A DNA stretch of 58,288 nucleotides, taken from Chiloscyllium plagiosum. Lineage: Eukaryota. This document shows positions 10,909 through 58,288 of the stretch, piece after piece. The notes under the pieces were generated by a model. That model was not told the DNA's origin and made no database searches. It saw only the letters and a list, made by a program, of their open reading frames with translations. The position numbers and the translations under genes are program-made. The DNA lies in contig NC_057737.1 of the NCBI RefSeq assembly GCF_004010195.1, positions 24,403,707-24,461,994 on the forward strand, read 5' to 3'. The stretch's first letter is position 1; the number at the start of each line of letters is the position of its first letter.

Positions 10909-11007
10909 AATATTTTCTCTTCAAGCTCAAAACTGAGAAAATAAAAATAGATCCTTTGCAATGTTATGAATATAAATTATAGGAAGGGAAGAGAGAAAGA
11001 TGTGTTT

Positions 11008-11928: not shown

Positions 11929-12079
11929 GTTTCCATTAATGAATTAAATTAATGGAATTAATTAAAGATTATACAATCCTCAACATTTTTACTTGATTAT
12001 ACTGGGTATAAAAGGGCACCTAACTGAGGCAATTAAAAGATATCAGAAAAATAAAGGATTATGAGTCACTTTACTCCCT

Positions 12080-14957: not shown

Positions 14958-15045
14958 GAAGGGCTTTTGCCCGAAACGTCGATTTCGCTGCTCTTTGGAT
15001 GCTGCCTGAACTGCTGTGCTCTTCCAGCAACACTAATCCAGAATG
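14958..15045 (+). mobile_element. Penelope pLTR fragment
   Basis: gaagggcttttgcccgaaacgtcgatt…ccagcaacactaatccagaat; the hammerhead core is truncated 5' of stem II. An older fragment lies at 15333-15425. Confidence 0.75.
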
Positions 15046-15519
15046 TAAGGGTCAGTGGCCTACTCTTGCTCCTAAATCCTATGTTAATTCTCAAGGCATA
15101 ATAAGTTCCAAATTTAATTACAATAACTGGTTCCAGCACCAAAAGAAAATTGGGATGGGGAGAATAAGACCTGCCACAAACTTGGTAACATTTTAAAAAT
15201 TGCAAAGGTTTGTAAACTGGCATCAAAGAATCATAGAGTTTCACGGAGCTGAATGTACATAAAGTGAAACATATGGGGGAACCTGCTATCCCTCTGATAT
15301 AATAGAACGAGAACACGAAGAGTAACTGGCAACGTTACCTCTGCTTTCTCTCCAAAGATGCTGCCAGACCTACTGCGTTTTCCCAACAATTTCTGTTTTT
15401 GTTTCTGACTTCCAACATCTGCAGTTCTTTGATTTTTTTTTGTAAAGTGTTCAACGCACTGTTACTGGCAGGTTTCTCCGATTTTGTGGTCAACTGAAAA
15501 GGAGTTACCAAGTCCCTCA

Positions 15520-30800: not shown

Positions 30801-33800
30801 ATAATACCGGAAGAATCTCAATAACCTTCTCTGCTCAGTGAAGGTAAGTGCCACCACCTTTTCTCTGTTACCTCTCAAATCACTCTATCTCTGCTGCTGC
30901 ACCCATCTCTCATCAAGACTCATGGTCTAAAACTCTCACTCATTCAGCATTTTCTCTCACTTGCTCTCACAACCCAAACACGCCCATCACAGCTAACCCT
31001 GTGTACGTTCTGCACTACCGACTCATTTCACTTCAGACAACTCACCACTTGCACCAGAATTGACAATGTTCCAACTGCTTTCATGCAATTTGTCCCATCC
31101 CAGGAGATAACATTGCACAATTGGGCAGAGAGAGCCGGGATGGACATCTAACATGCAGCTCCTTACCCATCACTTGTGGTGCTGAGACTGTTCAGGTATT
31201 GGTGTGCTATCTCTCATTCTTGCCACTGAGTGTATACTTAACATGCCAGAACTTCTCCCGCCTGTTCACAATGCTTTCTCTCTATTGTCTCCTGTTGGTA
31301 CCCGTGGTATCAGCACACTGAGGAAGAAGCATCAGATCCTTTGGAGGATGCATCAGCAAGCCTGTCTCCTCTATCCTCCACTGGCTCAGATACTGACACC
31401 TTGGTGGATACTTTACCCAGATTAGAGTTAGGAATACCTACTACTGAGCAGTTCACTGCCATGTCTTGGCAGCTAGCCAAACACAAAGTCTTTCTGGCAC
31501 TGCTGGAGCCAGGCATCTGCTCAATACAGGACTGGAGAAGGCCCCATGTGTTGACCATCAATAACTTCATCAAAATGACAAGGAGACATGAAGCAATAGG
31601 CAGGTTTATCACAGCACTAAGCAAGCTGACATAAAGTTTGTACGACTGCACCAATGCAGTTGGCACAATACTACTACTTCTGACATGTGGCTGTCCAGCT
31701 GCCATTATAGACAAGCTGCCTTGAGAAACTAAGTACTGGACCCTCTGTTTCCTGGATATAAACATGGAACTGCATACCCTTATTCCAGCCGTTAGTGCTC
31801 AGAACCAACAGCCAGGTGACAGAGATACCTTGATCTCAGCCAGGTGCCCTTTGTCGTAAGGAGACAGTGCAGAGGAGAGGCAACATATAGTTTCCCTTGG
31901 AGTTTCATGTCAGGATACACCAGGGGTGATACTCCACTATACTCCACTACTACTCCTTGCCTGCTACCCTCCTTCCTGTGGAAAGTCAAGCCAAAGTGGT
32001 TAAAGCTGGGCAGGTCAGATTCAGCATGTCTGAGCTTTCTAGTCCAACCTCACTACGTAACACTTCATCATTTTACCCACTGAGTCCAAGGGATATCGAG
32101 TCAAAATGCCCAGACATAGAAGTGCATTGCCTTCCTGCCTTCGCCCATTGAAATCAGGCTGTGCTGACTGTTGATGACTTCCCCTCCTGCACTGCCCCTT
32201 TCCCTTCCATGCTCCATTGTCCTGCACACCTCTCTTCCCACACCCCCCTCCCCCCCCATACATGTTGAGTTTCACTCTTCACAATAGTTAGCTCATCTGC
32301 ATCCCTGTATGTTGTTGTCAGTCACCACAACTGAATTTCTCAGCTTCCCTCCAGTAGCACTGGCCCCTGACAACTCCTCCATGACTTTTAGTGGATGGAG
32401 CTCCAGGACTGGCTATGGCCCACCCCTTTGCCTGACTTGGACAGAGAGCCCTGTGTATAGCTTCCCTACTGACATACTGCAACTCTCCAGCTCGTTGCAC
32501 TGGACCCACTGGCCTGACCATGGCTCACCTCTGGACTGTGGGGGGTATAGACCCCCCTTGCCTGACTTGGACAGAGAGCCCTGTCTGGTCTGTGTATAGC
32601 TTCCCTACTGACATACTGCAACTCTCCAGCTCATTGCACTGAACCCACTGGCCTGACCATGGCTCACCTCTGGACTGTGGGGGGTATAGACCCTGATCCT
32701 GAACACCCTAAGCAGATGACTCACTGTGTCTAAACTCCTGGACTGACATTTGAAGCTGATGTTGACTTAGTTTGCTGGGTCCCCCTGACTGAAGGGTATC
32801 TCCTTTGACTTGACTGAGAACTAATGCCCTTAGATTTAGAGGCACAGCCATTTTGTTGATGTGCACGCAGTCCGTTTGCTGCATGTGAGGCTGGCACATG
32901 GTACTGGCATGAATTGACATAGCATGGCAGGATGCTGTGAGCATCCAGCTAGGTGCAGTTAGTGAGTGCTAAAGAGAGCAAACGAGGATCCCTGAGATGC
33001 ACCCTTGCTGAATCCATGAGCTGGGTGCCTGTGCCTGCATGCAAATGTTCTTCCTGCAGTGTTGCAATGAAAGGTGGCAGTGCACTCCAAAGTGCAGCAT
33101 TGAAATGCAGGAACGTCTTGGAAGTGAATCAGAGATGTGCCATGCAGGTGTGGTGAGGTTAGTACATGTTGCATGTCAAACTGTATGGACAGGGGTTGCA
33201 TGTCATCACTGCCCATGGAGCATACCCTGAGATGTTACTGTTTGGTGTCTCGGATGGAGGCCCAGAGGAGCAAGCGGCAAGCTAAAGCCACCAATTAATT
33301 AACCGCACTGAGTTTCATGTCAGAAACTATCACTGTTCAGTTTCTTTTATTTGGGTGGCAGAATGAAAAACTGCATATTAATGAGGTGTGATTAAATAAT
33401 ATTGAGATGTTATTGCATGCAAATTGGCCCCTCACTGTTCATTAGTGTCTTTTCTCGTTGTGCAATACTTGGGTGGAAATGGGATTTTTTTATTCTGAGA
33501 AGTTCACATGTGATTCTTCCAATTTTCTCATGTTATTCAGGGGCTGGGAATATTCCACCCACAGTCTTTTTCTGAGGCATAGGTCCATGCGTGATGTCTG
33601 CTTCACTCAAGTGGCCATTTCTTATGTACAAACCTGTGCAATAAGATTGAGGAGATGTGTCAGGTGTTACAATAGGACTAATCCCATCCCCATGCAATAT
33701 CCACACAAACTCTGCTTAGCAGAATCACTGCAAGGCAATCTGGGGCACAAACCTCAGATGATTAAATTATTTTCCCACTCCTGATGATTTAGGCTGTACA

Positions 33801-36800
33801 GATCAATTGGCGTGTACCACTACTATTCTAGTTGATTAGTTATTTCAGCACAGATGTTAGATCTAATCTAGATGGTAGTCAGTAATTAACAGTAGATTGG
33901 ATTGACATCATTTCCATGATTTTGAGAGCTACTGTTTGTGGCTGTTATAAAGTGTGGTTGTGCTGCAAGATCTGATGACATATGTCTCTCAGACTACTCG
34001 CTCATATTGCTTTCAGATCAGACCAAGCTTTGCCAGAAAGTAAATTGAGCTTGAATCCAATCTGTAACTGTGAACCAAGTGTCTTTTGATGAATGTGAAG
34101 GACCATAAATCTTGGGTCCCCATTTGAGACTATCTTTTACAGGAATGAAAGAGCATTCACAAGCAGCATCAATGATATAAGGCTCAAATTTTCCTTCACA
34201 TGTTTTCTGGAATGTGTTGTTCATGTAAAATGTAGTTTATACACTCATCAGTCATTTTTTTCTTGAAAAAAATTGACTTTCTTTTCATTGCCCTTCATTA
34301 TTGGTTATCTGGGCTATGAAATCCTAGCACCCCTGAATAAGTCCAGCTAACAAATAAAATAGATGAATACATTTTCTTAAACTTTGATATAATGCTAGTA
34401 TTATGTATGCAATAAATAAATCTATTCATTTCTAGTAATCTTAATGTTGTTTGTCTTTCGATTTCTACAGACTGAAGTCCAGGATGGCAAGGTTATTGTA
34501 TTCACAACTACCTCAGTAAGTTTCCGTGACTCATTGCACACTTTGGAAAAAAAAGATTGGATTTTATTATCAATTTGTATGTCCGCTGGTAAACATGATT
34601 CATTATTTTCTATGTGTTTTAAATAGGCCTTGAACACAAACAAAAGGACCCAAAACATGGTCACTCGGTCACTAGTGAATAAAAATCTCATTCTTCTTAT
34701 AGGTGGAGGTAGGTTTAGTGTCTCAATTTATAGGTTGTATTTTTTGTTACTTATGAAGTGAAATAGTTTCCATTGTTCATGACCCCAAGACTGCAATTGT
34801 CTGCCTTGACTGACTTGCGACTCCACAGGTGGTGGAAAACCAGTCAGGCAGCATCCGAGGAGCAGGAAAGTCAATGTTTCGAGCATAAGCTCTTCATCAG
34901 GAATGAGGGGTAGCCCAAGGGGGCTGAAAGATAAATGGAAGGGGGTGGGGTGGGGCTGGGGGGAAGGTAGCTGGGGATGTGATAGGCAGATGAAGGTGGA
35001 GGTGAAGGTGATAGGTCGGAGAGGAGGGTGGAGCGGATAGGTGGGAAGGAAGATGGCAAGTAGGACAGTTCAAGAGGACGGTGCCGAGTTGGAAAGTCTG
35101 ATCTGGGATACGGTGGGGGGAGGGGAAATGAGGAAACATTCCCCTCATTGGGGAGACAGGACGCCAACTTGTGGAATGTTTCAGAGAACATCTCTGGGAC
35201 ACCCATACTAAACAATCCCATCGCCCTGTGGCCGAACACTTTAACTGCCCCCTCCCACTCTGCCAAGGACATGCAATTCCTGGGTGTCCTCCACCGCCAA
35301 ACCCTAACCACACGCCTGGAGGAAGAACACCTCATCTTCCGCCTTGGGACCCTCCAGCCACATGGGATCAATGTGAATTTCACCTGTTTTCTCATTTCCC
35401 CTCCCCTCACCTTATCGCAGATCCAACCTTCCAACTTAGCACCTCCCCCTTGAACTGTCCTACCGGTCCATCTTCCTTCCCACCTATCTGCTCCATCCTC
35501 CTCTCTGACCTATCACCTTCACTTCCACCTATTCCCAGCTACCTTTCCCCCATTTCCACCCCCCCACCCATTTATCTCTCAGCCCCCTTGGGTCCACCCC
35601 CTCATTTCTGATGAAGAGCTTATGCTCGAAATGTCGATTCTCCTGCTGCTCCGATGCTGCTGTGTTTTTCCAGCACCACATACTTTGACTCTGATCTCCA
35701 GCATCTGCAGTCCTCACTTTCTCCTGACTTACTGTGGACTGCAATACATAGTCAGCAGACCCAAGTTATACAGCAAATAACATGCTAGAAAATGTGTTTT
35801 CACTTAATGTTGATAATATTTTAAGTGCTGTTGGACTTAATAAATTTCTAAAATGCAAGCATAATAACCCAATCAAATGTGATAGGATAAGCCTCACACC
35901 TCTTGGCTTGGTGAACTCAGTTTATTTATCCTGCTGCTGTTTGCCTGAAATTACTTTGTTCCCTCACAATATTCCTTGAGTGTGTACATGTGTGTGGCTG
36001 CACAGATCCAAAAATGTTCTGAGCAATGTGGTGAACAGGCTGCCTGGAACAAGGAGCACAAGCAGAGGTTGGAGTTATGCATCAAATCCCAACCACAAAA
36101 CCATGAGTGGCTGGAGAGAGCATAAAAAAAGATGAAACTGTAATTGTTGTCGCAAGCATAAGAGAGAAGTGAACAGTGATTGGATGACTGGATTAGGGGT
36201 TTTCAGAGGAACTATGTCTGCAGGTCAATTGCGTGCGCTGAAGAGTGGCAGGTGAGTAGTCAAACAAGGCCTAAAAGCCTCTAAACATCAAATGCCCAAA
36301 GTAATCCAAGTTGTTCAGTGAAAGATTATGGGAGAGAAAGACTTTGTATAACTCCCCAGTCATGGATTAGCTTTTTTGTCATTCACCTGTAGGATGTGGC
36401 CAGCAATTTCTGCCCATCTTTACCTGTCCTTGAAAGGGTTTGGTAAACTTCTTCTTGAAGCACTGCAGTCCATTTGGTGTAGGTAGATCCGCAACGCTAT
36501 GAGGGTGAATGTTCCAGGATTTTGACCCACTGATGGTGAAGGAATGACGATATATTTCCAAGTCAGGGTGATGAGTGACTTGGAGTGGGAACCTACAGGT
36601 GGTGATGTTCCAGTCTATCATTTGCCTTTGTCCTTGTCGACAGTAGTAAGTTTAGAAGGTACTGTCCAAGGAGCTTTGGTGAATTTCTGCAGTTGATCTT
36701 GTAGATGATATATACTGCTGCTACTTACCATCAGGAGTGGAGGGAGGGCCTGTTTGTGGATATGGTGCCAATCAGGTGAACTATTTTTTTTCCAGATGAC

Positions 36801-39800
36801 GTCATGCTTCTTTGATATTGTTGAAGCTGCATCCATCAAACAAATAGTATTTCATCATACTCCTGACTTGTGCCTTGTGAATTGTGGACAGACTCTAGGG
36901 AGTCAGGTGTGTTACTCACTCAGGATTCATAGCCTCTGACCTGCTTACATGGCTAATCCAGTTCAGCTTCTGGTCAATGGTAACCCGTTGGGATGTTGAT
37001 AGTGGGGGAATTCAGTGATCATAATGCTATTGACTGCCAAGGGACAATGATTAAAATCTCTCTTTTTCAGATTGTGATTGTCTAGCACTTGTGTGGTGTG
37101 AATGTTATTTGTCCCCTTCTCCGCCTAAGCCTGGATATTGTTTAAGTCTTGCAGTATTTGGGCATGGACTGATTCGGTATTTGAGGAGTCACTAATTGTG
37201 CTGATTATTATGAAATCATCATAATATTTTGACCTTTGTAATAGAAAGAAGGTCACAAGTGATTGGCTGAGCATAGTTAGGCCCAGATCATAACACTGAG
37301 CTGAAATTAGGTCAGGAGCTGAGTGGCCTTGGTGGATCTCAACCTGAGCATCGGTGAGCAGGTTATTGCTTCCTGTACAGACAGCAAAAGTATCAGAAGA
37401 GTTTTTAACGTGTCAGTACCAAGAGCATTCAGAGGAGAAAAATGTTTGCATTGTTTTTCAATAAAGGTAATATAAGTTGTACTGAACGGCATAGAAATGT
37501 GGCAAAACTTTGTACTATCCACCCTTCAATAGCATTTACATTTACTTCATAGATCCCTTACTCCCACATTACAGGTTAAGCCCCTCTGCATTGAGTGTCA
37601 GTGGTTGTACTGGGTTTCCCTCATGTGTGGATCCCACCTCTTTCCCCATACCAGAAATTGAATCTGATAGAAGTGGGAGCAAGCCGCCACATCCAGTTCC
37701 TGTCTGCCATTTTTGAAGGTTGGCAGAGTCGACCTGACCATACAAAAATCCTATCGTTTATTGTACTTTCATGTACGTTGTCAAGAGGCAGTAAGAAGTT
37801 GCTAAATGCTGCTCATGCTCTTTTTTTTATTTCCCATCTAGATGCAATTACTGCTCATACTAAATTACTCTGTGTTTTGCATGTTAAAAATTCATTTCTT
37901 ATGTTCTGCACCATAGTGAATTGCAGATCCTTGTTGTCCAAAGGGAAGTTCTGTAAGTGGCTACTCATGTCAAAAGAGAAAAGCATAAGGAGAGAGAGCA
38001 GCTCTACCTTGTGCTTAAGAATCTCATTGTGGCTGGTTTCAAAATAATAGTAATAGTGGCTTAAAAGCATTTTCTGCTGTGGGATCAAACCGCTAAGTAA
38101 AAAGAGGCTGATGATTTTAAAAGAAAATGATGTAATTTTTATTATACTTTTTACAGTAATATATTGCAGTTGAAAATATAGCTGTCTTTTAGAGATATAG
38201 AAAAAATTTCAATCCACATTGTTGTATTTTTGTTTCTGCCGTAAGGTCCAGCTTCGTTAATCTGTGCAGAAACTCTTCGCCAGGAAGGTTACACAGGACG
38301 TATCATAATAGCAACCAAAGAAATGCACTTGCCTTATGATCGTCCGAAACTCAGTAAGGTTAGTAAGATAATAAATCGTTTGTGGACCATCAATGAACAA
38401 TAAGTCAGAACGCACAATAACATCATGTTTTTGTTACTAACTTTGTGTTTTTAATAAACTTAGATTTGTAACATTGGTTAAAAGTGGGCAGCAAGATGGC
38501 ACAGTGGTTAGCACTGGTGCATCACAGCACCAGAGACCCGGGTTCAATTCCCGCCTCAGGCGACCGACTGACTGACTGTGCAAACTCCACACACATTCTC
38601 CCCATGTCTGCGTGGGTTTCCTCTGTGTACTCCGGTTTCCTCCCACAGTCCAAAAATGTGCAGGTTAGGTGAATTGGCCATGCTAAATTGCCCGTAGTGT
38701 TAGGGGCAGGGATCAATGTGGGGGAATGGGTCTGGGTGGGTTGCGCTTCGGCGGGTCGTTGTGAACTTGTTGGGCCGAAGGGCCTGTTTTCACACTGTAA
38801 GTAATCTAATCTGATCTATACAACTGGAATTGTGTTTGAAAAATGAAAGAGGTAATATTTTGTTGTGGAACGATGGTTAGAAATAAAATATTTACTTTTC
38901 TTAATGAAATTGGGGACAAACAGAACTTGTGTGCTTTTGGGGTGCTATGACTGTCCTGTGAGTTTTGAAATGCATGTTTGAAAACATGCCCTTGTCGGCT
39001 AAATCCCATCAGATGCTATTTTGATACTGATACTAGCATACACACAGTGATAGTCCGTTGGAAGTATGCAGAGAAAGCAGATTATGGCATCACTCGCCGT
39101 GCAGTGCTGATTTGTAGAAGATGTCAGTGTTGAGTTGGTCATCATTGATGGAGATGTCCCGGAAGGGGAGGGAGGTGTCTGAGATGGTCCAGGTGAATTT
39201 AAGGTCGGGTGAAATGTATCGGTGAAGTTGATGAACTGTTCAACCTCCCCATGGGAGCACGAGGTGGCACCGATGCAGTCATCAATGTAGCGGAGGAAAA
39301 GGTAGGGAATGGTGCCAGTGTAACTATGGAGGATAGATAGTTCCATGTAGCCAATAAAGAGACCAGCATAGCTGGGGCCCATGTGGGTGCCCATGGCTAC
39401 CTCTTTCATCTAGAGGAAGTAGGAGGATTCAAAGGAGAAATTATTGAGGATGAGAACTAGTTAAGCCAAACGAATTAGAGTGTCAGTAGAAGGGTACTGG
39501 TGGGAACATTGGGAGAGGAAGAAACGGAGGGTTGGGAGACCATGGTCTTGGTGAATGGAGGTGTATAGGGACTGAATGTCCACGGTGAAGATGAGGTATT
39601 GGGGGCCAGGAAAACACAAGTCTTGGAGGAGGTGGAGGGCGTGGGTGGTGTCCGGAATGTGTGGGGGGAGTTCCTGGACTGGGGGAATAGGACAGTATCG
39701 AGGTATGTGGAGATGAATTTGGTGGGCAGGAGCAGGCTGAGACAATGGGTCGGCTGGTGTAGTCAGGCTTGTGGATCGTGTGTGGTAGATAGAACTGGGC

Positions 39801-42800
39801 GGTGCGGGGTTCCTGAACTGAGGTTGGAAGCTGTGGTTGGGAGATCCCCTGAGGTGGTGAGGTTGTGTACAGTCTGGGAGATGATGGTTTGGTGATGGGG
39901 TATGAGGTCATGGTCAACGGGGCACCTGACTTCAGCGGTGTAGAGGTCAGTGTGCCAAACTACCAGTGCACCTTCTTTATCCGCTGGTTTGATGGTGAGG
40001 TTAGGGATGGAGCAGAGGGAGTGGAGGGCTGCGTGTTGTGAGGGTGAGAGGTTGGAATGGGTGAGGGGGGATGGACAGGTTGACGCGGTCAATGTCCCAG
40101 CGGCAGTTGGAACTAAAGAGGTCGAGGGTGGGTAACAGACTGGCACGGGGTGCCCAGATGGATGGGGTGTGTTGGAGACAGGTGAAGGGGTCCTCAGAAG
40201 CTGGCGGGAGTCTTGATGGAAAAAGTAAGCTCGGAGGCAGAGGCAGCTAAAGAAGTGTTCGATGTCACGACGCATATTGAACTTGTTGTTCCGGGAGCAG
40301 AGGGAGATGAAGATAAGGCCTTCGCTGAGGACTGATCAGTCGTCCTCACTGAGGGGGAGGTCTGGAGGGATGGTGAAAAGGCTTCCTGATGAAGGGTTTT
40401 TGCCCGAAACATCGATTCTCCTGCTCCTCAGATGCTGCCTGACCTGCTGTGCTTTTCCAGCACCACACTCTCGACTTTAATCTCCAGCATCTGCAGTCCT
40501 CACTTTTGCCCTGTGCAATGCTGATTGTCAACAGCAGCAGTATCATTCTGGAGCTCCATGCTGAGCAATGTTCTATTTTAACTTTAACTATGCTCAACTG
40601 AACACCAACACTGCAATCCTCCCAGTGTGACCCAATCTCCTATAAGAACTATGTATAAGGGTCATCATTCCAGATTAATTGTAGATTGATTTTCTCCTCA
40701 CTGTTGCCACAATTCTACAAGTGTTTAATGCTCTCATTTGTTTCAAAAGTCTACAGGGAGTAATGGGCAGTTGCTGAAGGACCTTTTACCCCCAGACTTG
40801 GCTGTATTAGCAGTAGAGGTAAAAACAATGACTGCAGATGCTGGAAACCAGATTCTGGATCAGTGGTGCTGGAAGAGCACAGCAATTCAGGCAGCATCCG
40901 AGGACAGGCAAAATCGACGTTTCGGGCAAAAGCCCTTCATCAGGAATAAAGGCAGAGAGACTGAAGCGTGGAGAGATAAGCTAGAGGAGGGTGGGGGTGG
41001 GGATAGAGTAGCATAGAGTACAATAGGTCAGTGGGGAAGGAGATGAAGGTGATAGGTCAGGGAGGAGAGGGTGGAGTGGATAGGTGGAAAAGGAGCTAGG
41101 CAGGTCGGACAAGTCCGGACACGTCAGGGGATCGTGTTGCTGGAGGTTAGAAACTAGGATGAGGTGGGGGAAGGGGAAATGAGGAAACTGTTGAAATCCA
41201 CATTGATGCCCTGGGGTTGAAGTGTTCCGAGGCGGAAGATGAGGCGTTCTTCTTCCATGTGTCTGGTGGTGAGGGAGCGGCGATGGAGGAGTAGTCCCCT
41301 TCCAATATTGCGTGACTTCGAGAATCACAAAATGCCATGCAAAACTGGGTAAGTTAGTGGAAGAGACTGAGGATGGGGAAGAGGCAAGCTGTCCCCGAGA
41401 GGGGAAAGAAATGCAAAAATTCCTAAAATAAGAAATGCATGTCCTGCTCATACTGGGCTTCCATTTTCAGGTATAGCAGATGAGTTGGTCTAATTTGCAT
41501 CATTTCTAGGTTTTACTGTTTTAATGTCGTCTTCTGATGCAGGAGGCCATAGCCATTGGGGTGTTCAGGAAATGATTTTCTTGCCTGAACCTCCATTAGA
41601 AACATAATACCAGATATTTGCCTTTCCGTAAGACTGTCCTCCCTACCTGCTATAGCCACAATGAAACCGCATCAAGGCAAGGACTGTTGATCTAGTAACT
41701 ATGAAGATAACTGTGGTTATGCATCTGGCACCTTCCAGGTTGAATCTGCCAATTTATGCGACATCTTCCAGTTTTCTTTCCACTATTGTGTAATGGAAGT
41801 CTCTATTCAAAGAGAGCTAACTACATTTCATTTTACGTTACCAGAACAGGCTTTAGAAGTAATATGCACTGTCGGCTGCTAATTAATAGCAAGGACACGG
41901 GCAGAGTGGCCAAGTGAAGGAAGAATGCTGCCTTCTTGAGAGAACAGGCCTTTGCACAGTGGAGACATTACCAACTCCATTCTATCCATTCCCCCCAGCC
42001 TCACCTTTCATCCCAGCCCCATCTCCCTAAATCACTACTGTGAATATCTCAACAATTGAATAATGTGTTGGAGGCCATGTTGCTTTATTGCTAAGGCATC
42101 CCATGAGCTCCACTTGTGCACTGTAATCTACAACTGTGTTGGTGGTATTCTGAGCTGCACCAGCAAAGCTGAGCTCACGTGGAAGCGCCTACTGCAGAAA
42201 GTCCATGTTGGGTGGCTGTCGCTAGTGCTATAATGAAGGTTGCAAAATTGACAGCTACTCAGCATGATTGGATTCACAAGTGGGTAAACAAAGTTCCATG
42301 ATCAAAAAGGTAAACTCTAAGTTTGTCACAACTTGTGTGCCTCTTAACATTGATCTGAGACATTGATGGCCAGCTTTGCAATGCTTCAGACATTTATTTG
42401 TACGTACATCTCTGCATATTGCTCCTTTGAGATACAGTGATGATTTAAACAGTGTGTTACAATTGTAGCCAAAATTGACCATAAACATTCAGTTTTCATC
42501 TTTTGACTTTAACTGAGACTTTCATGAATTAAAAATGATTTTAAAAAAGGACACTTCTGAGGTAGTAGGCTTCTTTGACCACCTGACAAGCTCAGGTAAC
42601 CCAATGAATATAAAAAAGCTGGCTGCCTTGGAATTACCATTTTAATCACAGGCACTGAAATTCAGTGAGAAGTCAATAAATTTGTATCTCTTGTTTAACA
42701 AAGAATTGCACGATAATTGTACATATTGAGAGATGAAAGGCAACATACAAGTGTTCTGCTTAAAATGAAACATGACATATTAACGGCATCACTTGAGCAA

Positions 42801-45800
42801 AGAAAAAGCATATTTATTACCTGCAATGGCTGTGTTTTTGTGTGTGTGGTGTCTTTTTATGGGGGGCTAGTGGTTGGGGTGGTAGGTAATCATTTTCAAT
42901 AAAGAAAATCTTGGAATTGGCTGTCCTTCATTTTTGGAGAAACTGAGGACTGCAGATACTGGAGATCAGAGTCGAGAGTGTGGTGCTGGAAAAACACAGC
43001 TGTCTAGGCACCATCCGAGGAGCAGGAGAATCGATGTTTTGGGCATAAGCCCTGATGAAGGACTTATGCCCAAAACGTCGATTCTCCTGTTCTTCGGATG
43101 CTGTCTGACCTGCTGTGCTTTTCCAGCACCACACACTCGACTCTATCCTTCATATTTGATCCAGTTATACTGAGATTAATGTGACAACTAAGTTCTAAAA
43201 TTAGTTTAAAGAAGTAAAACAGTTATTACAACTGCCTGAGAGAAATTTAATATAAAGGGAGAGCTGTGACCCCTCTTCAGCTGTTTGTAGCAGGTTGTGC
43301 TAAGGCTGTATTTGTTGTTGATGGTATGTTGCATTTGAAGATTCATTCATTGGTGTTAATAACCTGTGAGAGGCTATTGAATTTCTTACACCAATACAAT
43401 AAGGCCATGCGGTCAAAGTGAGGGGGATAGGCCGGAGTGGGGTGGGGGCGGAGAGGTCATGAAGAAGATTGCAGGTTAGGAAGGCGGTGCTGAGTTCGAG
43501 GGATTTGACTGAGACAACAAAGTCTATGATTTGCTGTTGACCCATATAGGTGGCAATGTTTAGATTATATTCATTACAAGGGAAGTTTGCTTATAATACA
43601 GCACTTGAGCAGTGGTTTTGAAGGTATGGTTAAGAGTTTGAAATGACATGTATACAAGGTTTGGTGCAAGGTTAGGTCTTGTGACTCCGAGTATCAGTTG
43701 TTTCTCTTCTGTTGAAGCTGTTATCGGTGTGGCTGTGGCAACACAAATGGACAGCTTTAATACTGAAGACATTTGGCAACCTTACAGTTTATTGATTCTG
43801 GTTGGAGTCACCCTATCTCCACCCCACCCAATCCTGAACAAAGGTGCAGACTTCCTTTTTCTCCTTATCAGATTCCATTGAAGGTGCTATCTTAGTTCCT
43901 ATGGGAACATAACTAGCTTTGTTTGCTATTATGTTCTTATTTCTGTTGCTGTTTCAATTTACTTAGCCACATTACTTTTTCCTTCCACTTGTGGGTTTGC
44001 CTCACCAGCTGCTGGCATACACAGTAGATCAACATAGCACATTGCCATTCTACATAGATTGAGGACTGCTTAGTATCAAGGTAGGATGCCCGTTTTTGTG
44101 CCTGTCATGCACAAACAGACATAACAAGGCAAGACAGGAATGCTGTGATCATGCATGTAGGCACAAAGTCAGTTGGCACCAGGAGAAGCAAGCAAGTAGC
44201 TCGGAGACGTGGCCTAGTCCAGTTTGAGTTTGGTTCTATGCACAAACTGTTCCCGCTGTAGCCTTTCAATGTTTGTTGCTGGTATGCTCTATGTTTTGAG
44301 AGAGTATTACTAGTGCAGGGGACAAAAGCTCAGATGGGCACGAGGGGTTGTCAGTTGTCAGATGTCAATGTCAGTGGGTGCATGGGGCTGGTGCCCATGG
44401 ATCAAGCTCTGGGCTGCAGTTTGGTCACAGGCAGCAGGGATCACTCAGCCAGCTGAATTTGCTGAATACCCATGCTGGTTTCCTTGTCAGGTGTTCCCTA
44501 CATCGAGCTTATTTGGTAAAATGGAAGGTTGAATATTACGAGGCAAGTTGTGCACTTACATTTAACAAGCTTAATCCCTGTCAATTGGCATCTTGTCACT
44601 ACCTATTGAGAAATTGCACCAAAAATATAAAAGTTAACCGTCAGTGGATTGCACTGCTGCCTCACAGTCCTCAGGACCCTGGTTCGATTCTACCCTCGGG
44701 CAATTGTCTGTATGGAGTTTCCACATTCTCCTGGTGTGTGTGTGTGTGTTTTTCCTCCGGGCGCTATAGTTTCCTTCCACAATCCAAAGATATGCAGGTT
44801 AGGTGGATTAGCCATGGGAAATACACGGTTACAGGGACAGGGTGGAATACTCTTCGGAAGGTCAGCGTAAACTCGATGGGCTGAATGGCCTGCTTCCACA
44901 CTGTATGGATAACACGAGTTGCTCCTGACATCAAGGTGGGCCTCACTGCAATAATCACCATGCTCTGCCAAACAATCTGCCGTTGCCCATGTCGCCGAAA
45001 CACCCATCGGATTCCACCCATTATTTTGAGTTCCATGGAGTCCTCCTTTATTTTCTGATTGCTTATTAGAGTAAATGCATAATCAGTAATTTTGCCTGTT
45101 TATATACTTCTACTCTGTACTTGTGGAGATCTCTCTCTCACACACACACTTTCTCTCTGTTTACACGTTTTGTTGTACCTTTGCATCAATCTAACGAACA
45201 GTACGTTTTATGTTTTGTCTGATCTTTGCATTAATCTCACAAACCGTATGCTTTGCAATTGAAGTAACAGTAGGAAAAAGTGGGTACATTGGGGGAAGCT
45301 AGACAACTGATTATATATTATATATTAGATTACATTGTGGAAACAGGCCCTTCGGCCCAACAAGTCCACACCGACACACTGAAGCGCAGCGGGAACAGTT
45401 TGTGCATAGAACCAAACTCAAACTGGACTAGGCCACGTCTCCGAGCTACTTGCTTGCTTCTCCTGGTGCCAACTGACTTTGTGCCTACATGCATAATCAC
45501 AGCATTCCTGTCTTGCCTTGTTATGTCTGTTTGTGCATGACAGGCACAAAAATGGGCATCCTACCTTGATACTAAGCAGTCCTCAGTCTATGTAGAATGG
45601 CAATGTGCTATGTTGATCTACTGTGTATGCCAGCAGCTGGTGAGGCAAACCCACAAGTAGACAGCTATATATCCAACTCTTAGAGTCAGGGGGTTCAAGC
45701 ACAGTCGATTAAGGGCAACCTCCCAAACCAGTCAAGGGCATCTTTTATAGGCTATGCCTGTGCTATCTAGCCAATCTAGAGAGTGGGCCACCATTAGTCT

Positions 45801-48800
45801 ATTGTCTTTGTAGCAGCCATTCCAGGGTTCGGGCTAATTCAGTCAGGGACATGTTAGCAGCACCACTCAGAGGCATCATGCCTGGGACTGTCCTGTCATG
45901 TCAGTCATTGAGGTGGGCCTGATCAGTCCACTGGGTCCATCTACAGAAAATAAGGGGGAATGGAAAGAGATCGGGGAGTACGTGGGTTTGGCCATTGCTG
46001 TGGGAGGTTACTGTATAAGCAGGTGAATACATTGTTTAGCAGGTTCCTGTTTGTCACTGGATCTTTCAGGTTCTGGGGGAAAGCCCACTAAAATTGTGAA
46101 AGGAAGCAGCAGGATTTGCAAAGAGAAGGACTAGGCAGGGTGTAACATGAGGCAGAGTTGTCCGTGTCAGGAGTACCCTGGCTTCAAGGGTGCAGCAGTG
46201 TATGACCACACCTGGCATGGTCACCTTCTATGCCAGGGACTGGGTGGAAATGGTAGGCAAGTTCAGCCGGATATAAATGGACTGAATGGAGTCTTGGGGA
46301 AGTGAGAAGCATGAAGCTTTAGGGTGGGTTGTGAAGAAGGGTATGTGGATATTTGGGGGCTCTCCAGTACATTCAGTCTGAGGATAGTAGTCATTGGAAG
46401 AGGAGTGCTCACTCTCATCTCCATCATGCTGGAGATCAAAAGTGCACAAGGGTGAAACATTGTTTTTGACCACACTTAGAGTGGGCAGAGTAATTGACTC
46501 AGTGTGTGCCTTTACAGGGAAAGGCATTGGTCACAAACTCATGCACTGTTCAGCACACACATCCACGCTACTCTCTGAGCATCCTACAGCACTGACCCTC
46601 TCTGTATGTTGTCCCTCCCTGGCACAGCCACTGATGGGTGAATTCATTGATAGCTACAATATTGTGCACAGAGGGAGCGAAATATTTGGAAGGATGAATG
46701 AAGTAGGACAAAGGTGCCAGCATGACCCAATGCCATTTGTATTATACTGACCTATTGATTTATTGTTGTCACATGCACCGAGATACAGTGAAAAGCATTG
46801 TTTTGTGTGTTATTCAGATTGCATCATAGAGTGTGCAGAATACAGTGTTACAGCCACAGAGAAGGTGCAGAGAGAGAGAGATCACCATTAACGTTTGAGA
46901 GGTCCATTCATAGCAGCGGGGAAGAACCTGTTCTTGAACCTATTTGTGCATGTATTCAAGCTTTGATATCTTCTGTCCGAAGGCAAAGAGTGCAAGAGAG
47001 TATAACTGAGATGGGAGGGGTCTTCGGTAATGTTGGTTACTTTCCCAAGACAGCAAGAAGTATAGATGGAGTCAGTGGATGGAAGGCTGGTTTGTGTGAT
47101 GTACTGGGTTGTGTTCACAACTCTCTGTAGTTTCTTGTGGTCTTGGGAAAAAACAGTTGCCAACCCACTTTGCGATGCATCCAGCTAGGATGCTTTCTAT
47201 GGTGCATCTATAGAAATTGATAAGGTCCTTGTGGCCATGCTGAACTTCCTTAGCCTTCTCTAGAAACAGAGACATTGTTGTGCTTTATTGACCATCACGT
47301 TGACATGGGTGGTCTGGACAGATTGTGGTGATCATCACTCTCAGGAACTTGACCCTCTCAACCATCTCCACCTCAGCACTATTGATGCAGACAGGGGCGT
47401 GTCCTCCATTACATTTCCTGAAGTCAATGACCAGCTCCTTTTGTATTGCTGACAGTGATGGAGAGATACACCATGCCATAAGCATTCAATCTCTTTCCTG
47501 TATTCTGCCTCATTGTTTGATGTCCAAATACAAAGTTGGTGTCATCACAAACTGGGAAATGGAGTTGGGGTGGAATTTGACCACAGTCACGAGTGTGTAA
47601 GGAGTATAGTAGGGGGCTGAGTACACAGCCTTGCGGGGCACTGGTGTTGATGATTATGGTAGAAGAGTGTTGTCACCTATTCTTGCGTTTGCAGTCTATA
47701 GGTCAGGAAGTCAAGGATCCAGTTACAGAGGGGGGGAGCTGAGACCTAAGTCTCGGAGTTTAGAAATGAGTTAGTTTGGAATTTATGAAGGCAGAGCTAT
47801 AGTCGATAAACAGGAGTTTGATATAGGTATCCTTGTTATCTGGATGTTTCAGGAATGAGTGTAGGGTCAGGGAGATGGCGCCTGCTGTGGGACCTGTTGT
47901 CAGTAGGTGAATTGCAATAGATCAAGGCAAATTGGTAGGCTTGGAGTTAAAGTGAGCCATGACTAATCTCTCAAAGTACTTCATAATTATGGAGGTCAAA
48001 GCTACCTGGCAGTAATCACTGAGGCATGCTGCATGGTTTTTCTTTGGTATTGGGATGATGGTGGTCTTCTTGAAGCAGGTGGGGACTGCAGACTGTAGTA
48101 AGGAAAGGTTAGAGATATTTTATAAAGATAGCAAATACAGTCGGTTCTGATATAACTTGATTAGTTCTGTTTTCGTGCAATCTCGTGTTATAAGAAAATC
48201 ATGCAATAGCCACGCCATTTAAACTAATGGGGCCAGAATCATATTATAACCAATATAGCTAAGGAAAGTTCACGTTCTACAAATAATGGTCTAAATTCTT
48301 CAATCGCATTAAAGCCACTTCGTGTTCAAGAAACACGTGCTACAGCAGACCAACTGTACTCCTGCCAGATGGTTCAGACAGGATCTGAGTGCATGGCCGG
48401 GGACTGCATCCAGGCCAGTCGCTCTCTGTGAGTTTGCTCTCAAGGAGGCCATTCTAATGTCTGTGGCGGTGACCGTGAGCACAGGTGCATCTGAGCAGTT
48501 GGGACAGGTGACATCGTTTCACTTACCTTTTGTTCAAAGTGACCACAGAATGCATTAAGCTTGTTTGGTATGGATGTATTGGTGCCTGTGATTTTGTGCT
48601 TTGTAGCCCATTATGTAGTGTAAACCTTTCTACAAATGACTGCGGTCCATGTGGTTAGTCTGGGTCTCAATGCTTATTTTGGTATCGCCTCTTGGCGTCT
48701 CTGGTGACCTTGCAAAGGTCATTGTTCCTTCTGCTTCCTGACCCAGACCTCCATCCATTGAGACTTGTCCGTGGCCATGAAATGCTATGGGATCAGCTGA

Positions 48801-51800
48801 AAATGCATTCAGTGCCTACACAGAAACTCGCAACCATGCGCAAGTTAAATACAGGAATGTATATTAATAAACTGAAAGTGATGTACAAGCTATTTTTACC
48901 CATTCCACAGAAGTGCCCTCAATCGTTTTTCTTCTTTTTCTCCATCCTACTACATGTGAGTGCGCTTCCTGGTTCCACAGCTGGGCTGAAGGGAGCCTTG
49001 CTGGGCTGTTGACCCCTTTGGCCTCTCAAGGTTTGGTGGGGTAACCCCATGTGCCTTTGTGTGTAGAAGGGTCAGGTATGCCAAGGGTCTGCCTATCACA
49101 GACAAATTAACCACTCTTGGTTTGAACTTCTCACACCACGGTGAGCTTCCTGGCCTTGTGTCCATACTAAACAGCAAGATAATAAATAGTACTGTAAGCC
49201 TGGTATCTCTGACTGAAAGGCAAGGTGTAATAAAGGCAAGGAAAAACAAGGTGCTGGAAGCATTCAGTTAGGCTCAGAGCAAATGTGCATTTATAAGAGC
49301 AAGTGAACAACCTGGTCCAGTCCATGAGCTGAGCAGGATGTCCCTCAGGGTACAGTATCTTTCCTGCAATATGACAGTGATAGATGCCATTGCGCACTAA
49401 GTGCAGAAGTTTGCTATCAGAGATGTGCCATGTTGGTTTTTAGACACTGACAATTATCAAGAATGCCAGTGTCTTGGAGTATATGTGGCCAGTGCCCATG
49501 GAGCATTCTGTGAGATGATGGTGCCTGGTACTTCATTTGGAAGTTCTTCAGCAGTGAGCTGAAGTTGCCAGGTACCCAATCTGATTTCCATATCAAGCTA
49601 TCTCAGCACCTAGTTTGCTTGTGGAGAGTATTAGGATAGGAAGCTGTATATTAATGAGATAAGATGTACAGCTAATAAGGTCATTTACAAGCTATAATGA
49701 GCAACTTGCTGCTGACTAGTATGAATCTCAACTCTTAGTTAAAAGAGGCAATAGATTGTTCCTAATTTTGAGTGGTCTTGCTTAAATTCCTTACACTTCT
49801 GCCATGTTTTTGCAATAGCCCATGTCCTTCAGGCCTCTTTCAGATTTTGCCCCATGTTTTTAGTTAACTAACAAATGATTTCTGACCTCTTTGAAAAATT
49901 GTTACTCTCACAGAACTGAAAACACACACATTCCCAAATAATAATATATTAAACATAATTTATCACACTAGCCTTTCATCATTAGCTTCTTGTTGATGTG
50001 TGCAAAGAATGAACATCACAATTTGAACTGGTTCAATACAGAGGTGATAGAAGTGAGCAGGCATCATAGAGTTAGCATGTCACCTGCATTGCAATCAATG
50101 GGAATAGGTTAATCGCATGACAGTCTCTACACAATTTCAGAGCTATCCAATCTTTCAGAACTCGGCAAAATAATATGTTTTGAGAATGACGATATATCAC
50201 ATCCTTTCATTTCCCTCTCACCCAACCCCCCCCACCCCAGCCAACAATGTAATGTTTAATATTCTCTCAAGGAGCTGAGGATATGAAGTAAAATCAGATT
50301 TGCCTAGGTACCATGTTTAAATCCAGAATAGAAAAATAACAATGTTATTAATTCTGGAATCATGCTTTAACAAACCATTAGGGTCATTAGTCATAACAAA
50401 GTTATTATAAAAACTGGTCCGTTGTGAATACCCTGTTTCCAGACCTAAATCGACATGTTTTAAATGGAATCAATTTAGCCAGGCTTCCTTGAGTTAACAC
50501 AGTGTGAATTTATTAATTAGCAAACATGAGAAGAATTAGTAACATAACATATATATTAAAAATAAGAAGTAAGAGGTTTTGAACCCAGATATTTGGATCA
50601 GCCTCTGAACTGTTCATTAAAATTGGAGTTGAAAGTTATGGCTGTTACACTGGAAATTATTGGCAATTTTGCCATGGGTTACTGAACACATGGTTTCACC
50701 ATCTTTAGTTTTGATGATTGGTTAAAATTCTATAGTCCTGATTCTTTTTGAATGTAATTGAATTCCAGTCTTCAGGGTGGGAAAGGGTCCCTTTGCAGAC
50801 TTTTTGACCTTGTTTCCTTTTGTCTGGTTTGCCTCACTCAGAGTGAGAGACATTTTCTTTACTTGCAACACAGGGGTGACTAAGAGAGAATATTTCAACC
50901 ATCCAACACTTGAACTCAAGCTGGCACACATGAGAATGTTTAGTCCCACTAGGACACTCCAGTAGAGTTTAAACTGGCTTTTAATCATATGTATTCTTAA
51001 AAAGGGTGACACAAAATGTTTCTTCAGTTTGGAACATAATGCACAGAGGGTGCCTTGCTATTAAGCAGTGGGTTGTCAGCCTCTCATTATTTTCATAATC
51101 ACAAGTGATTAAAATCCAATTTGTTTTGATTTGTCCTTTCCCCCTTTTGAAGGGCTGTTTTTTGAAGTTTCCTTGCACTTGTAGGTGTGCCACTCTATGG
51201 GTCTCCCTCTGTCTACAAATAGCCACTTAATTTATATCCACAACCATTTCAGACTCAACTTGGACATATAAGTTTTAAATGTTAACAGTACATAATCTGA
51301 CTTATGTTCGCGAGACATGTCATGAGCTGTTTTATGGAAATAACCGTGTGATGCCAGCACCATAACATTTATAAATATTGTACTCAACCATATCACAAAT
51401 GATTTAATTTTATAAATCACAAACACAATATGACATAAATACATACATATTCTGTATGTACTATTTGCTTATATGTAAAAAGTTTTAATTTGCTTGTTCC
51501 AGATGAGCTGTGGACATTCTAAAAATAAAGACCATTGATGCCATTTTTTTTCCACAGTATTTCAACTGCTTTTCTGCTGTTATGTGTTGGCCAAATGGGA
51601 GAATTGATGCCAACATTCATCCTTACTCCTTTACAATTTAATGAATGTGATCCCTGCACATTCTGTAATGTTTGTTGTATAATTTAACATTGGTTCCATT
51701 GTTTTGGCTCAATCTGCAGCTGGTTATGTTAATGCATGACCCTAATGCATCACAATTCTGGTGGTTGTTAGAGACCACTGATAAGATTGTAATCATGCAA

Positions 51801-54800
51801 GCTGTGGATCTATAACACAAAATATTTTTCTCAGGCTCAGGGCCAAGGCATATTACAGGCTGGGTAGAGAACAACTGGTTTTTCATTTGGTCAGTACCAT
51901 ATCTGGGAGTGCACTTTGCTAATATTTGATTAGATTAGATTCCCTACAGTGTGGAAACAGGCCCTTCGGCCTAACTATTCCACACCGACCCTCCAAAGAG
52001 TAACCCACCCAGACCCGTTTCCCTCTGACTAATGCACCTAACACTATGGGCAATTTAGAATAGCCAATTCACCTGACCTGCACATCTTTGGACTGTGGGA
52101 GGAAACCGGAGCAAACCCACACAGACACAGGAAGAATGTGCAAACTCCAAACAGACAATCACCCGAGGCTGGAATTGAACCTGGGACCCGGGTGCTGTGA
52201 GGCAATAGTGCTAACCACTGAGCCACCATGCTTCCCATTTGTATTTAGAAGAAGAAAATGCTCCCTTTCTGGATTGGCAAATTCCAAATTCTCACAGTGA
52301 CCTAGTGAATTTATTCAACCTTGACATCTAGTGAAGGTGCCCTTTGTGGATGCTAATAACCTCATGACTATAACATCTGGCAAAGCTAACACTAGAAACA
52401 TGCAATGCTGCTACGCAGGAAGGAAAATGGCTCTTGTAGTGTTGAAGAAACATCCAATGTTTTGAGCAGTAGACTGAAGAGAATTAATGGGAAATGTAAA
52501 CTGGCCTTTGACAGTTCGACTGGCAAGCAATACTGAGTAAAGAAATAGAGATATAAAGGCAGCATTAGTAAGTGAAATGGAGCCTATAAACTAACATTCC
52601 AGCTGCTCTCACTGTTGCAATGGGTGTAAAATATTTTGAAACCTCTTGATGTTGTGAAATTTGGTATATAAATGAAATAAGTTTTTCACAGGATTGACAG
52701 TAGTTTAATTTCAGGCAGAGAGTCTTGTGGAATACTGGTAATGTTCATACCTTTGAGCCAAGAGGTCTGGGTTAAACTCCTCTGCTAGACTTCTCAGCCT
52801 CTGAAGGTGTACTTAGGGCATGATTTTTTTTGTACTGTTAATCATTCCAGAAAACTTTACATCACTACTCCCCACAGAAAAGAAAATGTCTGTGTGGAGA
52901 TATGCTTTTTACAAAAAATTAGGATGTCACCACCATCCAACTTGGCATTGCTCTGGCCTTTTAGGATGGATTTAACGAGGAATGCTGATGGCTGTCTTAT
53001 GCAAAGAAGGCCTAAATATTTTGAAATCAGGCATACAATTGTAACTATTTCCTGAGCAATTTAAGATTCCTAACAAGTCTGTTGACACAAGACTAATCCT
53101 AAAGTGTATGCATAAAGAAATGAGTGAGGAAATTGCTCCTACCATGTAGTACAAAAACATCATGATCCCCACTACTGGACAAGTCGGATCTCATAATGAA
53201 ACCTGGCTTTATAGACTGCATGTTTATTTTTGCTTTGTTTCATCAACATTGTGGTTAGTCATTGAAATATATTCATATGAGGCTGAAGGTGTTCTTCAAC
53301 AACAGTGTTTCAATTTATTACACACAAGAAATAAAACAAATAAATCATGCTATTAGGACAGTTGGTAAGGTCTTTAAGCAGTATTGTTTTCCAATACTAT
53401 CCTTTAGAGAGAATCAAGTCCGGAGACATTATTCTCCTATCTCAACCCTGTAAATGTTTATTTCCCTAACTCCTTCCAGTTGTTTTTACTTGAACTGACA
53501 ATTTTACAATTCCTCTAAGTCCAGTGGTTTGACCATTCCATAATTCTAATGGCCTTTTTTTTCAATGTTAACAACTTAATGATTCTTATTCCAAACTCTC
53601 CTAGTTTGTAAGCTTCACAACCTACAGTTCAGTTTTCTCAGAACTGAACTGAACTAAACTTAACTAAAATCTGCTAGAAGAGAAACTTGATTCTGAACTC
53701 AACTCTTAATTCGTCTCAATTAAAAGGCCAGTGTTTTCTGAACTGAGTTAAAAACAAAACTAATGGCTGAATGTGCGAACAAACCAAAAAGTACAAAATC
53801 TTATTCAGTTAATGCTGCAGGAGTTTTCCCAAGCCCTTGTTTTCAGTCATACATCTTCTTGGAACTAGTGCTTTGAGGTCACTGCTCCTGAATAACTTTC
53901 TGACCTCTTTTTCTTCATAAAAAAACTTTGCAGCCAAACTCACATTTGTGTGTTTTTCCTCTTAAAAAATAATCCAAATTCCAAAAATAATATATTTTAA
54001 ATGCCTTTCAACACAATTATTCTATTACCACAATTATTGTAATTTTAGTTTTATCTTCACAATGTAAACTTGTGACATGGCCATATACTGGTTAGCCTTC
54101 ATTAAAATATAATCCATCCATTTTGCTTCACTTCCTCTTAGTGTCCTCTTAACATCTGGCTAGGATGGGGGCAAGTATTTGCATGAGCTCAGAGCTGATC
54201 GTATTAGTTTTATCATCACACATTGTCTGATTCGCGTCCACAGGAACATTCATTCAGCTAACTTATTGTAGCTCTTTAGAGTCATAGAGGCCTACAACAT
54301 AGAGTCAGGCCCTTTGGCCCAAACTGGCCCATGCCAAGCAAAATGTCCATCCACGCTAACCCCATTTCCCTACACTTGGCTCATATCATTCTAATCCTTT
54401 CCTATTCATGTATTTGTCTAATTGCCTTTTAAATGGTATTAATGTACTCGCCTCAACCACTAACATCGGCAGCTCATTGCATATGCGTACCACTCTCTGT
54501 GTAAAAGGTTCCCTTTTATTCTTTCCCCGCTAACCTTAAGATGATGGCCTCTAGTCCTCAAATCACCAACTCTGGGGGAAAAAGACCTGACTATGTTCAC
54601 CTTATCCATGCCTTTCATGATCTTATGCACCTTTATAAGGCCCCACCTTAGTCTCCTACACTCTTTTTTTAAAAAAAAAAAGTCTGGGCTTGCCCAACCT
54701 CTCCCTCTAACTCAGACTATTAAGTCCAGGCAACATCCTTGTAAATTTCTTCTGCACTCTTTCCAGTTTAATAACATCCTTCCTATAACGAGGTGACCAA

Positions 54801-55841: not shown

Positions 55842-56412
55842 AACATGGAACATAGAACAGAAAAGGCCCTTTGACCCGTGTTGTTGTGTCGACCTTTTAT
55901 CCTACTCTAAGATCAAACTAACCTACATACCCTTTTCATTGTACTATCACCCACGGGCCCAAGAGTCACTTACATTTCTCTGCCACTACTGGCAATGAAC
56001 TTCATGCATCCACCAATCTCTGTGTAAAGAACCTACCTCTGACATGTCCCCTAAACCTTCCTCCAATCACTTTAAAATTATGCCCCCTCCTGATAGCCAT
56101 TTCATCCTGGGGAAAGGTCTCTGGCTAGCCACTCTATCTCTGCCTGTCATCATCTTGGCTAACTTTACCAAGTTCCCTCTCATCCTTCTTCACTCCAATG
56201 AGAAGCCCTAGCTCCCTCAACCTTTCTTCATAAGACATGCCCTCCAGTCCAGACAGCATCCTGGTAAATCTCCTCTGTATCCTCTCTGAAGCTTCCACGC
56301 CCTTCCTATCATGAGGGGACCAGAACTGAACACAATATTCCAAGTGTGGTCCAACCAAGACTTTAATGAACTGCAGCATAACCTCACTGCTCTTAAACTC
56401 AATCCCCCTCAA
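55842..56412 (-). mobile_element. CR1 LINE 3' fragment
   Basis: Minus ORF 56134-56412: [13 protein letters not shown]…RRFTRML…YEERL. Confidence 0.9.
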
Positions 56413-57326: not shown

Positions 57327-58160
57327 GGGCTGAATTTTACCAAAAATCATCTGCCAAATTTGGGGATCTTCATAGAACATTCCCTGACATGAGAAATTGT
57401 AATTTTCCTCAGGCAATGCTTGCTTCATGATTTATGTATCATGCATCTATGACATCGAGGATTTAACCAGCAGCAGGAGCACTCGGTGCGCAGAAACTGA
57501 CAGAATTTCCAGCACCCGCACCATATTTGTGTTCAGTGTCAAGCATCACATAGAGGAATGCATTAAAAGGCAAGGCAAGACAGAAGTACAGTGAGCCTTT
57601 GAGTTCTGAATGAGGTGTCAAAATTCAAAAAGGCAAGGCAGTGCAAGATCGATATGCTGCGAGCATCCAAATAAGCACAAAGTGAGTGAGGGCTAAGAGA
57701 CCAAACAAAGATTCCTGAAGTACAGCCTGCTCCAGTGCATGATTCAGGTGCCTTCTTCTGTGTGCAAACTGTCCTGGCACTAACCTTACAATGCAAAGTG
57801 TGGGTGAACTCCAAAGTACAACAATGAAAGAGAAATGTGTATTCTGAGTGGGTAAGGGATGTGCCATGATAACATGGTGAGGCTAGTGTGTGTCTAATAT
57901 CAACCCCCATGCACCAGGTTTGCAGATGGTCACTACCGTATAATGTGTCCACTGAGTCAGCTGGCCAAGATGGACGCCCGGGAGCCAAAACAGTGAGCTT
58001 GAGCCACCAAGTATCTCTGTGCCTTTCATGTCAGTAATTGTCACTGGTTTCTCTGTAGTAATGGGAGAACAGGAATCTGCATATAAATGAGGCAAGATTA
58101 GGCACTAAGATGGTGTAAATGCATGTAAATGGACATCTTGTCTTTCACTAGCAAGATTCT
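57327..58160. mobile_element. Probable non-autonomous Harbinger-type element
   Basis: Starts GGGCTGAATTTTACC, complementary in style to the right ends of the other copies. Its right end is interrupted by CR1 at 58162. Confidence 0.4.
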
Positions 58161-58161
58161 C

Positions 58162-58288
58162 ATAGAGTCATAGAGATGTACAGCATGGAAACAGACCCTT
58201 CGGTCCAACCCGTCCATGCCGACCAGGTATCCCAATCCAAACTAGTCCCACCTGCCAGCACCCGGCCCATATCCCTCCAAACCCTTCC
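58162..58288 (-). mobile_element. Young CR1/HER1 3' end (runs off window)
   Basis: catagagtcatagagatgtacagcatggaaacagacccttcggtccaac, with CpGs retained. Confidence 0.92.

Follow-up and report, generated by a model that had tools for sequence, protein, structure and literature searches.

The closest described systems are human. L1 insertions have been reported together with local inversions or inverted duplications that form when resected ends anneal to themselves; in one case this happened on the primary reverse-transcription end (10.1101/2024.12.14.628481). The locus analysed here, which lies in a 58,288-nt stretch of DNA (the window), is probably of the same kind as these remodelled L1 ends, combining an insertion with a local inversion and inverted duplication. 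The L1 cases are somatic or come from human cell culture, whereas here the element is a non-L1 SINE on what is likely an inherited allele. As the accessible text of the same source describes them, the L1 inversions have gaps, and the inverted duplications lie on the reciprocal end and form small hairpins; at our locus, unlike in those cases, what is probably the primary end carries both the inversion and a duplication of 272 bp, and the loop measures 1.1 kb. Somatic L1 sites also carry foldback inverted duplications of 52–220 bp of local DNA, with one jump onto pre-mRNA, according to the available portion of a further study (PMC10191854), and these resemble the present case in placing an inverted duplication of local DNA beside a new insertion. 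In the germline, insertion-mediated inversions recovered with xTea from 20 people comprised 5 with Alu and 1 with L1 (PMC8219666, available text). A SINE insertion is tied to a local inversion there as here, but through the L1 machinery, and that text describes the inversions with neither breakpoint duplication nor mechanism.

Among 18 staggered-break inversions of Drosophila, 12 have duplicated sequence that derives from a single breakpoint (PMC1885836). Their final layout is the same as that of our locus and the size of the duplication is similar; however, they are large and are explained there without retrotransposons, whereas here a SINE tail fills one junction. Recombination between inverted Alu or L1 pairs leaves a retrotransposon at an inversion end, as here, but it needs repeats at both ends (PMC2603318, in the portion available) and none was found at the left junction of our locus. 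Large reciprocal inversions with two L1 bridges, as outlined in the accessible part of 10.1101/2024.08.27.596794, do not fit the locus. For CR1-type SINEs we found no report of an insertion-linked inversion in literature searches that were thin on subscription papers and excluded supplements. Insertion-linked inversions are already known for human L1 and Alu and, if the rearrangement arose in a single event, a CR1-type SINE case would by analogy be an extension of them.

The inverted repeat and its ancestral order

The rearrangement lies within an intron of a plus-strand gene. One exon of this gene matches Rieske (Pfam PF00355, E 7.9e-06) and another Pyr_redox_2 (E 0.011, below the curated cut-off), with ferredoxin reductases among the similar proteins; a third exon has no Pfam match. 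Judging by domain order, we take this gene to be AIFM3-like, which is likely the case. No exon is touched by the rearrangement.

To the window we compared contigs from public sequencing runs. Among the 24 runs listed, 18 contain part of the locus and four were compared with positions 44259–46400: X15 from organism A, X5 and X7 from organism B, and X10 from organism C. Run X15 comes from a study other than that of the best-matching runs (X1–X4, outside the comparison), and X10 is one of the runs X10–X14 that have small word shares. Individual alignments are available for 32 listed pieces of 183,844, the shortest listed being 61 nt. The features of the locus, with the strand on which each is read, are as follows.

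43987–44258, plus strand: left arm, 272 bp; its ancestral join to the spacer is kept, gapless in all four aligned runs (X5, X7, X10 and X15)
44259–45311, plus strand: spacer (M) of 1,053 bp, present once; the relatives have it in the opposite orientation
43987–45311, no strand assigned: inverted block, 1,325 bp, consisting of the left arm and the spacer, from the contigs of organisms B and C
45312–45386, minus strand: SINE 3' tail, 75 bp, with an intact stem-loop and an AT-rich terminal repeat
45387–45658, minus strand: right arm, 272 bp; its ancestral join to the right flank is kept
43957–43986, plus strand: left flank (X), ending at 43986/43987, the inferred left new junction, where the arm match stops
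44641–44909, plus strand: a SINE copy within the inverted block, older than the tail and unrelated to it, 69–73% to other copies
45301–45308, plus strand: left member of a proposed target-site duplication; ancestral spacer sequence, lying inside X7 record 26, X10 record 6 and X15 record 13
45659–45666, plus strand: right-hand 8-mer of that proposed duplication; the right flank (Y) began here ancestrally, and three runs of organisms B and C read straight through it
38359–54995, plus strand: host intron, 16.6 kb, of the Rieske and FAD-oxidoreductase gene; encloses the inverted block

A self-search of the window establishes that 45387–45658 is the reverse complement of 43987–44258 over 272 bp with 3 mismatches (E 2e-135) and that the gap between the arms is 1,128 nt, exactly as the preliminary description had it. 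All three mismatches (44059/45586, 44092/45553 and 44150/45495) are transitions. None is a change from A in the left arm to G in the copy on the sense strand, and RNA editing as their cause was rejected on this ground. The earlier view of the event as local and single-copy agrees with the self-search, in which there is no third arm copy within the 58,288 nt, and with a summed contig depth of 11–46 in the arm bin (45411–45482) as opposed to 5.8–15.8 million in the tail bin, counted at 88% likeness and with contig depth taken as a rough guide. The same depths argue against the arm being a multi-copy terminal inverted repeat of a DNA transposon or part of a foldback element. An older, longer inverted repeat surrounding the spacer was searched for in the window and none was found, and Tandem Repeats Finder returned a single row for the window, located away from the inverted repeat.

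The relatives give the ancestral order. Record 15 of X5 follows the window from 46225 to 45387 on the minus strand and continues, gapless, from 44259 to 44727 on the plus strand; record 1 of X10 has the same join between arm and spacer, approached from the opposite side, as does record 22 of X7. X5 record 15 and X10 record 1 span position 45658/45659, reaching 272 letters to one side of it and 567 to the other; for X7 record 27 the corresponding figures are 38 and 314. Organisms B and C (three of three runs) thus have one arm, which abuts the right flank at one end and the reversed spacer at the other, and the ancestral order is reversed spacer, one arm, right flank. The left flank presumably preceded the reversed spacer, a join that we infer. 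The window instead reads left flank, arm, spacer, tail, reversed arm and right flank. These joins in the contigs of B and C mean that the 1,325 bp from 43987 to 45311 are inverted relative to these organisms and that it is the right arm that stands in its ancestral place. The window therefore differs from the ancestral order by this inversion, by a second arm copy and by the tail at the right new junction. Formerly single-copy sequence is present at both ends of the inversion in opposite orientation, as self-search and relatives' contigs together reveal, which is the layout of staggered-break inversions.

The match to the window ends at 45311 in X7 record 26, X10 record 6 and X15 record 13, and is followed there by 1,097, 803 and 25 unlike letters, respectively. 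As the contigs of B and C pass 45311 by so much unlike sequence, the high-copy tail is likely absent from them. None of the new junctions was found among the 32 listed pieces of 183,844 (runs X5, X7, X10 and X15), and the spacer end had no matches in metagenome_contigs. With listed pieces of 61 nt and longer, the lack of a tail piece among them is weak evidence on its own. A 10-mer at 43974–43983 is the reverse complement of 45272–45281; in the inferred ancestral order the pair would flank the break as direct repeats separated by 33 nt, which hints weakly that the ends were once neighbours.

The event is recent and local, and tied to the SINE tail, as had been proposed, with arm divergence below species divergence. 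The arms differ at 3 of 272 positions (1.1%, 95% range 0.2–3.2%), whereas the window differs from organism B (X5) at 52 of 1,308 (4.0%; Fisher p 0.017 versus the arms), so the duplication is younger than the species split. From organism C (X10) the window differs at 50 of 1,023 sites. Contigs of X15 differ from the window by 0–2%. In this run, record 8 passes unbroken through the join of arm and spacer at a depth of 20.8, about twice that of its neighbours, and is the sole cover of bin 45411–45482. The X15 animal (organism A) is likely to have a single arm, contigs being able to show presence rather than absence, and likely to be without the tail, as the match stops at 45311. If X15 is single-armed, as is probable, this hints that the rearrangement is polymorphic or private to the assembled lineage. 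Two further observations concern the same run. Record 8 matches as far as 45579 and ends in 34 letters that do not; from the bin boundaries, cover starts again near 45662, and CAG is present at both places. At 45580–45661 X15 may thus have lost about 85 bp or gained an insertion, a coverage hole alone being no proof of either. In addition, 5 differences between X15 record 13 and the window are packed into 28 bp (45021–45048), and at 45021 and 45023 X15 is identical to B and C.

The SINE tail and other repeats

Read on the minus strand, the tail matches four longer SINE copies in the window, among them 59 nt at 88% to 38742–38800. It is joined directly to the arm, as described before; its start, however, is 45312 rather than 45310, the relatives matching through 45311. 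The tail overlaps the target by 3 nt (45309–45311) and the arm by 2 nt (45387–45388). The 2-nt overlap was previously recognized as TG microhomology, and this stands: TG is also present at the same place in the SINE copy at 38742, and in each run 127–218 contigs track the tail to 45388 and then go on in SINE sequence. The tail is truncated at its 5' side, its 3' end is the natural terminal repeat of the element and its polarity is that of a cDNA primed at 45311. Target priming leaves a 3' end at the terminal repeat, an overlap with the target, cDNA polarity and a 5' truncation with a short overlap, although two-nucleotide overlaps are frequent by chance. The natural 3' repeat, the target-priming polarity, the 3-nt target overlap, the 5' truncation and the retained stem-loop link the tail to retrotransposition. 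The stem-loop is intact and is common to LINE-like copies at 12848–12887 and 58186–58223; it is no more stable than shuffled sequences (z -1.0).

Over 58 compared columns, 4 changes are private to the tail, and three neighbouring SINE copies have 4, 3 and 4. The chance of 4 such changes is 0.002–0.008 at the age of the arms, 0.016–0.056 at 1% and 0.07–0.52 at 1.6–2.5%. Tail-like sequence is extremely abundant, given that 41,682–52,252 records per run match 44259–46400, mostly on two SINE pieces. No retrotransposon sequence was found at the left junction, where 43400–43983 has no SINE match in the self-comparison of the window. The window contains no N and has no Rfam matches.

The longer SINE copies in the window have what we take to be A- and B-box-like motifs, that is, a tRNA-type head. 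The SINE may be an HE1-like V-SINE with HER1 as its partner LINE. HE1 and HER1 are listed for sharks and rays in PMC3747384. The tRNA-type head boxes of the SINEs in the window, and a 3' tail common to LINE-like copies, would be in keeping with such a pair, and the host is likely a cartilaginous fish. The older SINE at 44641–44909 has 8 private changes in the compared columns, and contigs of relatives enter it (X5 and X7). It has the same head and another 3' end, and contigs that leave at 44910 share the LINE-like tail; this 3' end suggests, from sequence comparison, that there are two SINE subfamilies.

Other repeats of the window lie apart from the rearrangement. A head-to-tail duplication of about 132–141 bp at 32423–32693 is 91% identical with one 9-bp indel, and no SINE tail was noted adjoining it. 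A hairpin at 42968–43144 has 86-bp arms (86% complementary) and a 5-nt loop, with relatives at 8080–8277, 9396–9549, 14958–15046, 34828–34911, 35598–35730, 40383–40510 and 40830–40947; it resembles what we take to be the ends of Penelope-like elements. Decayed LINE-like fragments, 64–84% alike and with what we presume to be reverse-transcriptase-like frames, occur at 3558–4332, 11003–11929, 20275–21235, 24426–25593, 26467–27122, 28476–29045, 54272–54934, 56017–56409 and 58160–58288.

Origin of the inversion

We lean, with moderate confidence, towards a single target-primed SINE insertion in which the cDNA end folded back on its own DNA strand and so gave rise to both the inversion and the duplication. 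The proposed course starts with a nick made by a CR1-type LINE enzyme in the antisense strand, at the boundary between left flank and spacer end (45311). From there roughly 75 nt of SINE RNA would have been copied, with priming through the 3-nt overlap with the terminal repeat. The other (sense) strand would have been cut and then resected or unwound for more than 1.3 kb. Two nucleotides at the 3' end of the cDNA could next have annealed to the strand that carries it, at a distance of 1,053 nt from the nick. A polymerase, whether of the host or the reverse transcriptase (the two are inseparable from sequence), would have continued synthesis from the folded cDNA across the arm and on into the right flank. 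The hairpin would have been opened by a nick lying 272 nt past the priming point, and the freed end would have been joined to the left flank. The template would have been DNA, or antisense RNA, rather than the host pre-mRNA. What is found at the locus is an inverted block with a tail at its breakpoint that has the natural 3' end and priming polarity, two of the defining features of a retrotransposition-induced inversion. A switch from SINE cDNA to local sequence at the TG overlap is the best account of the junction at 45386/45387. Against a single event, the tail looks older than the arms; as its 4 changes in 58 columns are unlikely at the arms' age, the RNA source would under this reading have been an already diverged SINE copy, and no such copy was found. 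We also compared the pairing of the nick-side bases with the fold-back and second-cut sites. The joints ranked 53 and 25 of 73, 63 of 111, and 4 and 31 of 62 at three probe lengths (at 63 of 111 the second joint lies outside the collapsed sites, and the best window is at the 7th percentile), and preferred self-pairing at the fold-back or nick sites gained no consistent support across the probe lengths.

The preliminary description had proposed instead a template jump, in which reverse transcription began on SINE RNA and moved to the host pre-mRNA or to nearby DNA, the resulting arm copy and tail being inserted between the two members of a possible 8-bp target-site duplication. The window alone agrees with this, having a left arm in sense orientation, the TG overlap and 8 of 9 flank matches, and a comparable pre-mRNA jump is described once in human colon clones in the accessible text of PMC10191854. 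Insertion into an empty site nevertheless fails on the relatives, which have the spacer reversed and no break between arm and right flank; the model would need a prior inversion and then a copy that ended by chance at the breakpoint and restored the ancestral join, and we regard it as scarcely credible. The empty site with one AGACARCT that had been predicted for relatives is absent, as three of three runs of B and C have the join between arm and right flank and both motifs. Both 8-mers of the supposed degenerate duplication are indeed present, but each lies within sequence common to the relatives, so the AGACARCT pair is no target-site duplication; such a pair occurs in 0.5–1.6% (9-mer) or 2–6% (8-mer) of 4,000 random neighbourhood pairs. 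L2-clade elements make duplications of 3–5 bp (PMC4245944, available text), and one of 8–9 bp would therefore be unexpected for that related clade. The jump onto pre-mRNA cannot be upheld either, because the right arm was templated by the antisense strand in the ancestral orientation and the gene is on the plus strand, which excludes the host pre-mRNA as template provided that the right flank has not been turned round relative to the exons.

Two separate steps would divide the age of the tail from that of the arms: a SINE inserted at the join of left flank and spacer early in the lineage of organism A, and a later inversion, by staggered breaks or replication template switching, that broke at or within the SINE, duplicated the arm and dropped any 5' part of the SINE. 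The 4 private changes in 58 columns suit an age of 1.6–2.5% (P 0.07–0.52), and X15 record 13 stops 25 letters beyond 45311, like a contig running into a repeat; but those 25 letters are unaligned to the window tail from the first base, and X15 is likely without the SINE. Inversions with inverted duplications at one breakpoint are common without retrotransposons (median 321 bp in D. yakuba; PMC1885836, accessible part), and human inverted duplications, with a median of 284 bp, are interpreted as replicative in the available text of PMC12350158. A break exactly at the SINE 5' end would however be required, or loss of the whole 5' part, none of which is present in 43400–43983, and we judge this course unlikely. 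An old-looking tail in a young junction is also accounted for by ordinary break repair with the tail as filler, either DNA-templated from an old genomic SINE copy or an RNA patch laid down without endonuclease cleavage, and the great abundance of SINE tails would make such a source easy to come by. Yet random filler has no cause to end at the 3' terminal repeat, with a 3-nt overlap and target-priming polarity, which makes this origin distinctly improbable. An assembly artefact, in which haplotypes were misassembled or mixed, would be in keeping with the new junctions being in none of the 32 listed pieces of 183,844, with the organism A run X15 likely lacking a second arm and with the 1.1% between the arms falling within the 0–2% by which X15 and the window differ. 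A mis-join would, however, have to create a 75-bp tail that overlaps at both ends where the relatives have no repeat and to end exactly at 45311, where three runs stop, in a window without N; we hold this to be very improbable.

Consequences of the proposed fold-back insertion

Pre-mRNA transcribed from this allele would contain a 272-bp duplex (predicted at -560 kcal/mol), a likely substrate for editing. If a single fold-back insertion produced the locus, insertion-induced local inversion, known for human L1 and Alu, would also occur with a CR1-type SINE in a vertebrate far removed from humans, and a layout that has long been credited to staggered breaks could come from the folded-back DNA end of a retrotransposon. 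A single genome, read by itself, presents the locus as an insertion with a target-site duplication, and the inversion is visible only through relatives, which calls for caution. It is conceivable, though we put it forward as a doubtful proposal, that small inversions resembling staggered-break ones arise regularly in the germline through CR1-type retrotransposition. The cDNA end would fold back across roughly a kilobase and the hairpin would be opened by a nick, so that an inversion with a mirror-image duplication results and a short SINE tail is its sole trace. If this were true, SINE-rich genomes would hold many such inversions, polymorphic and misread as insertions with target-site duplications.
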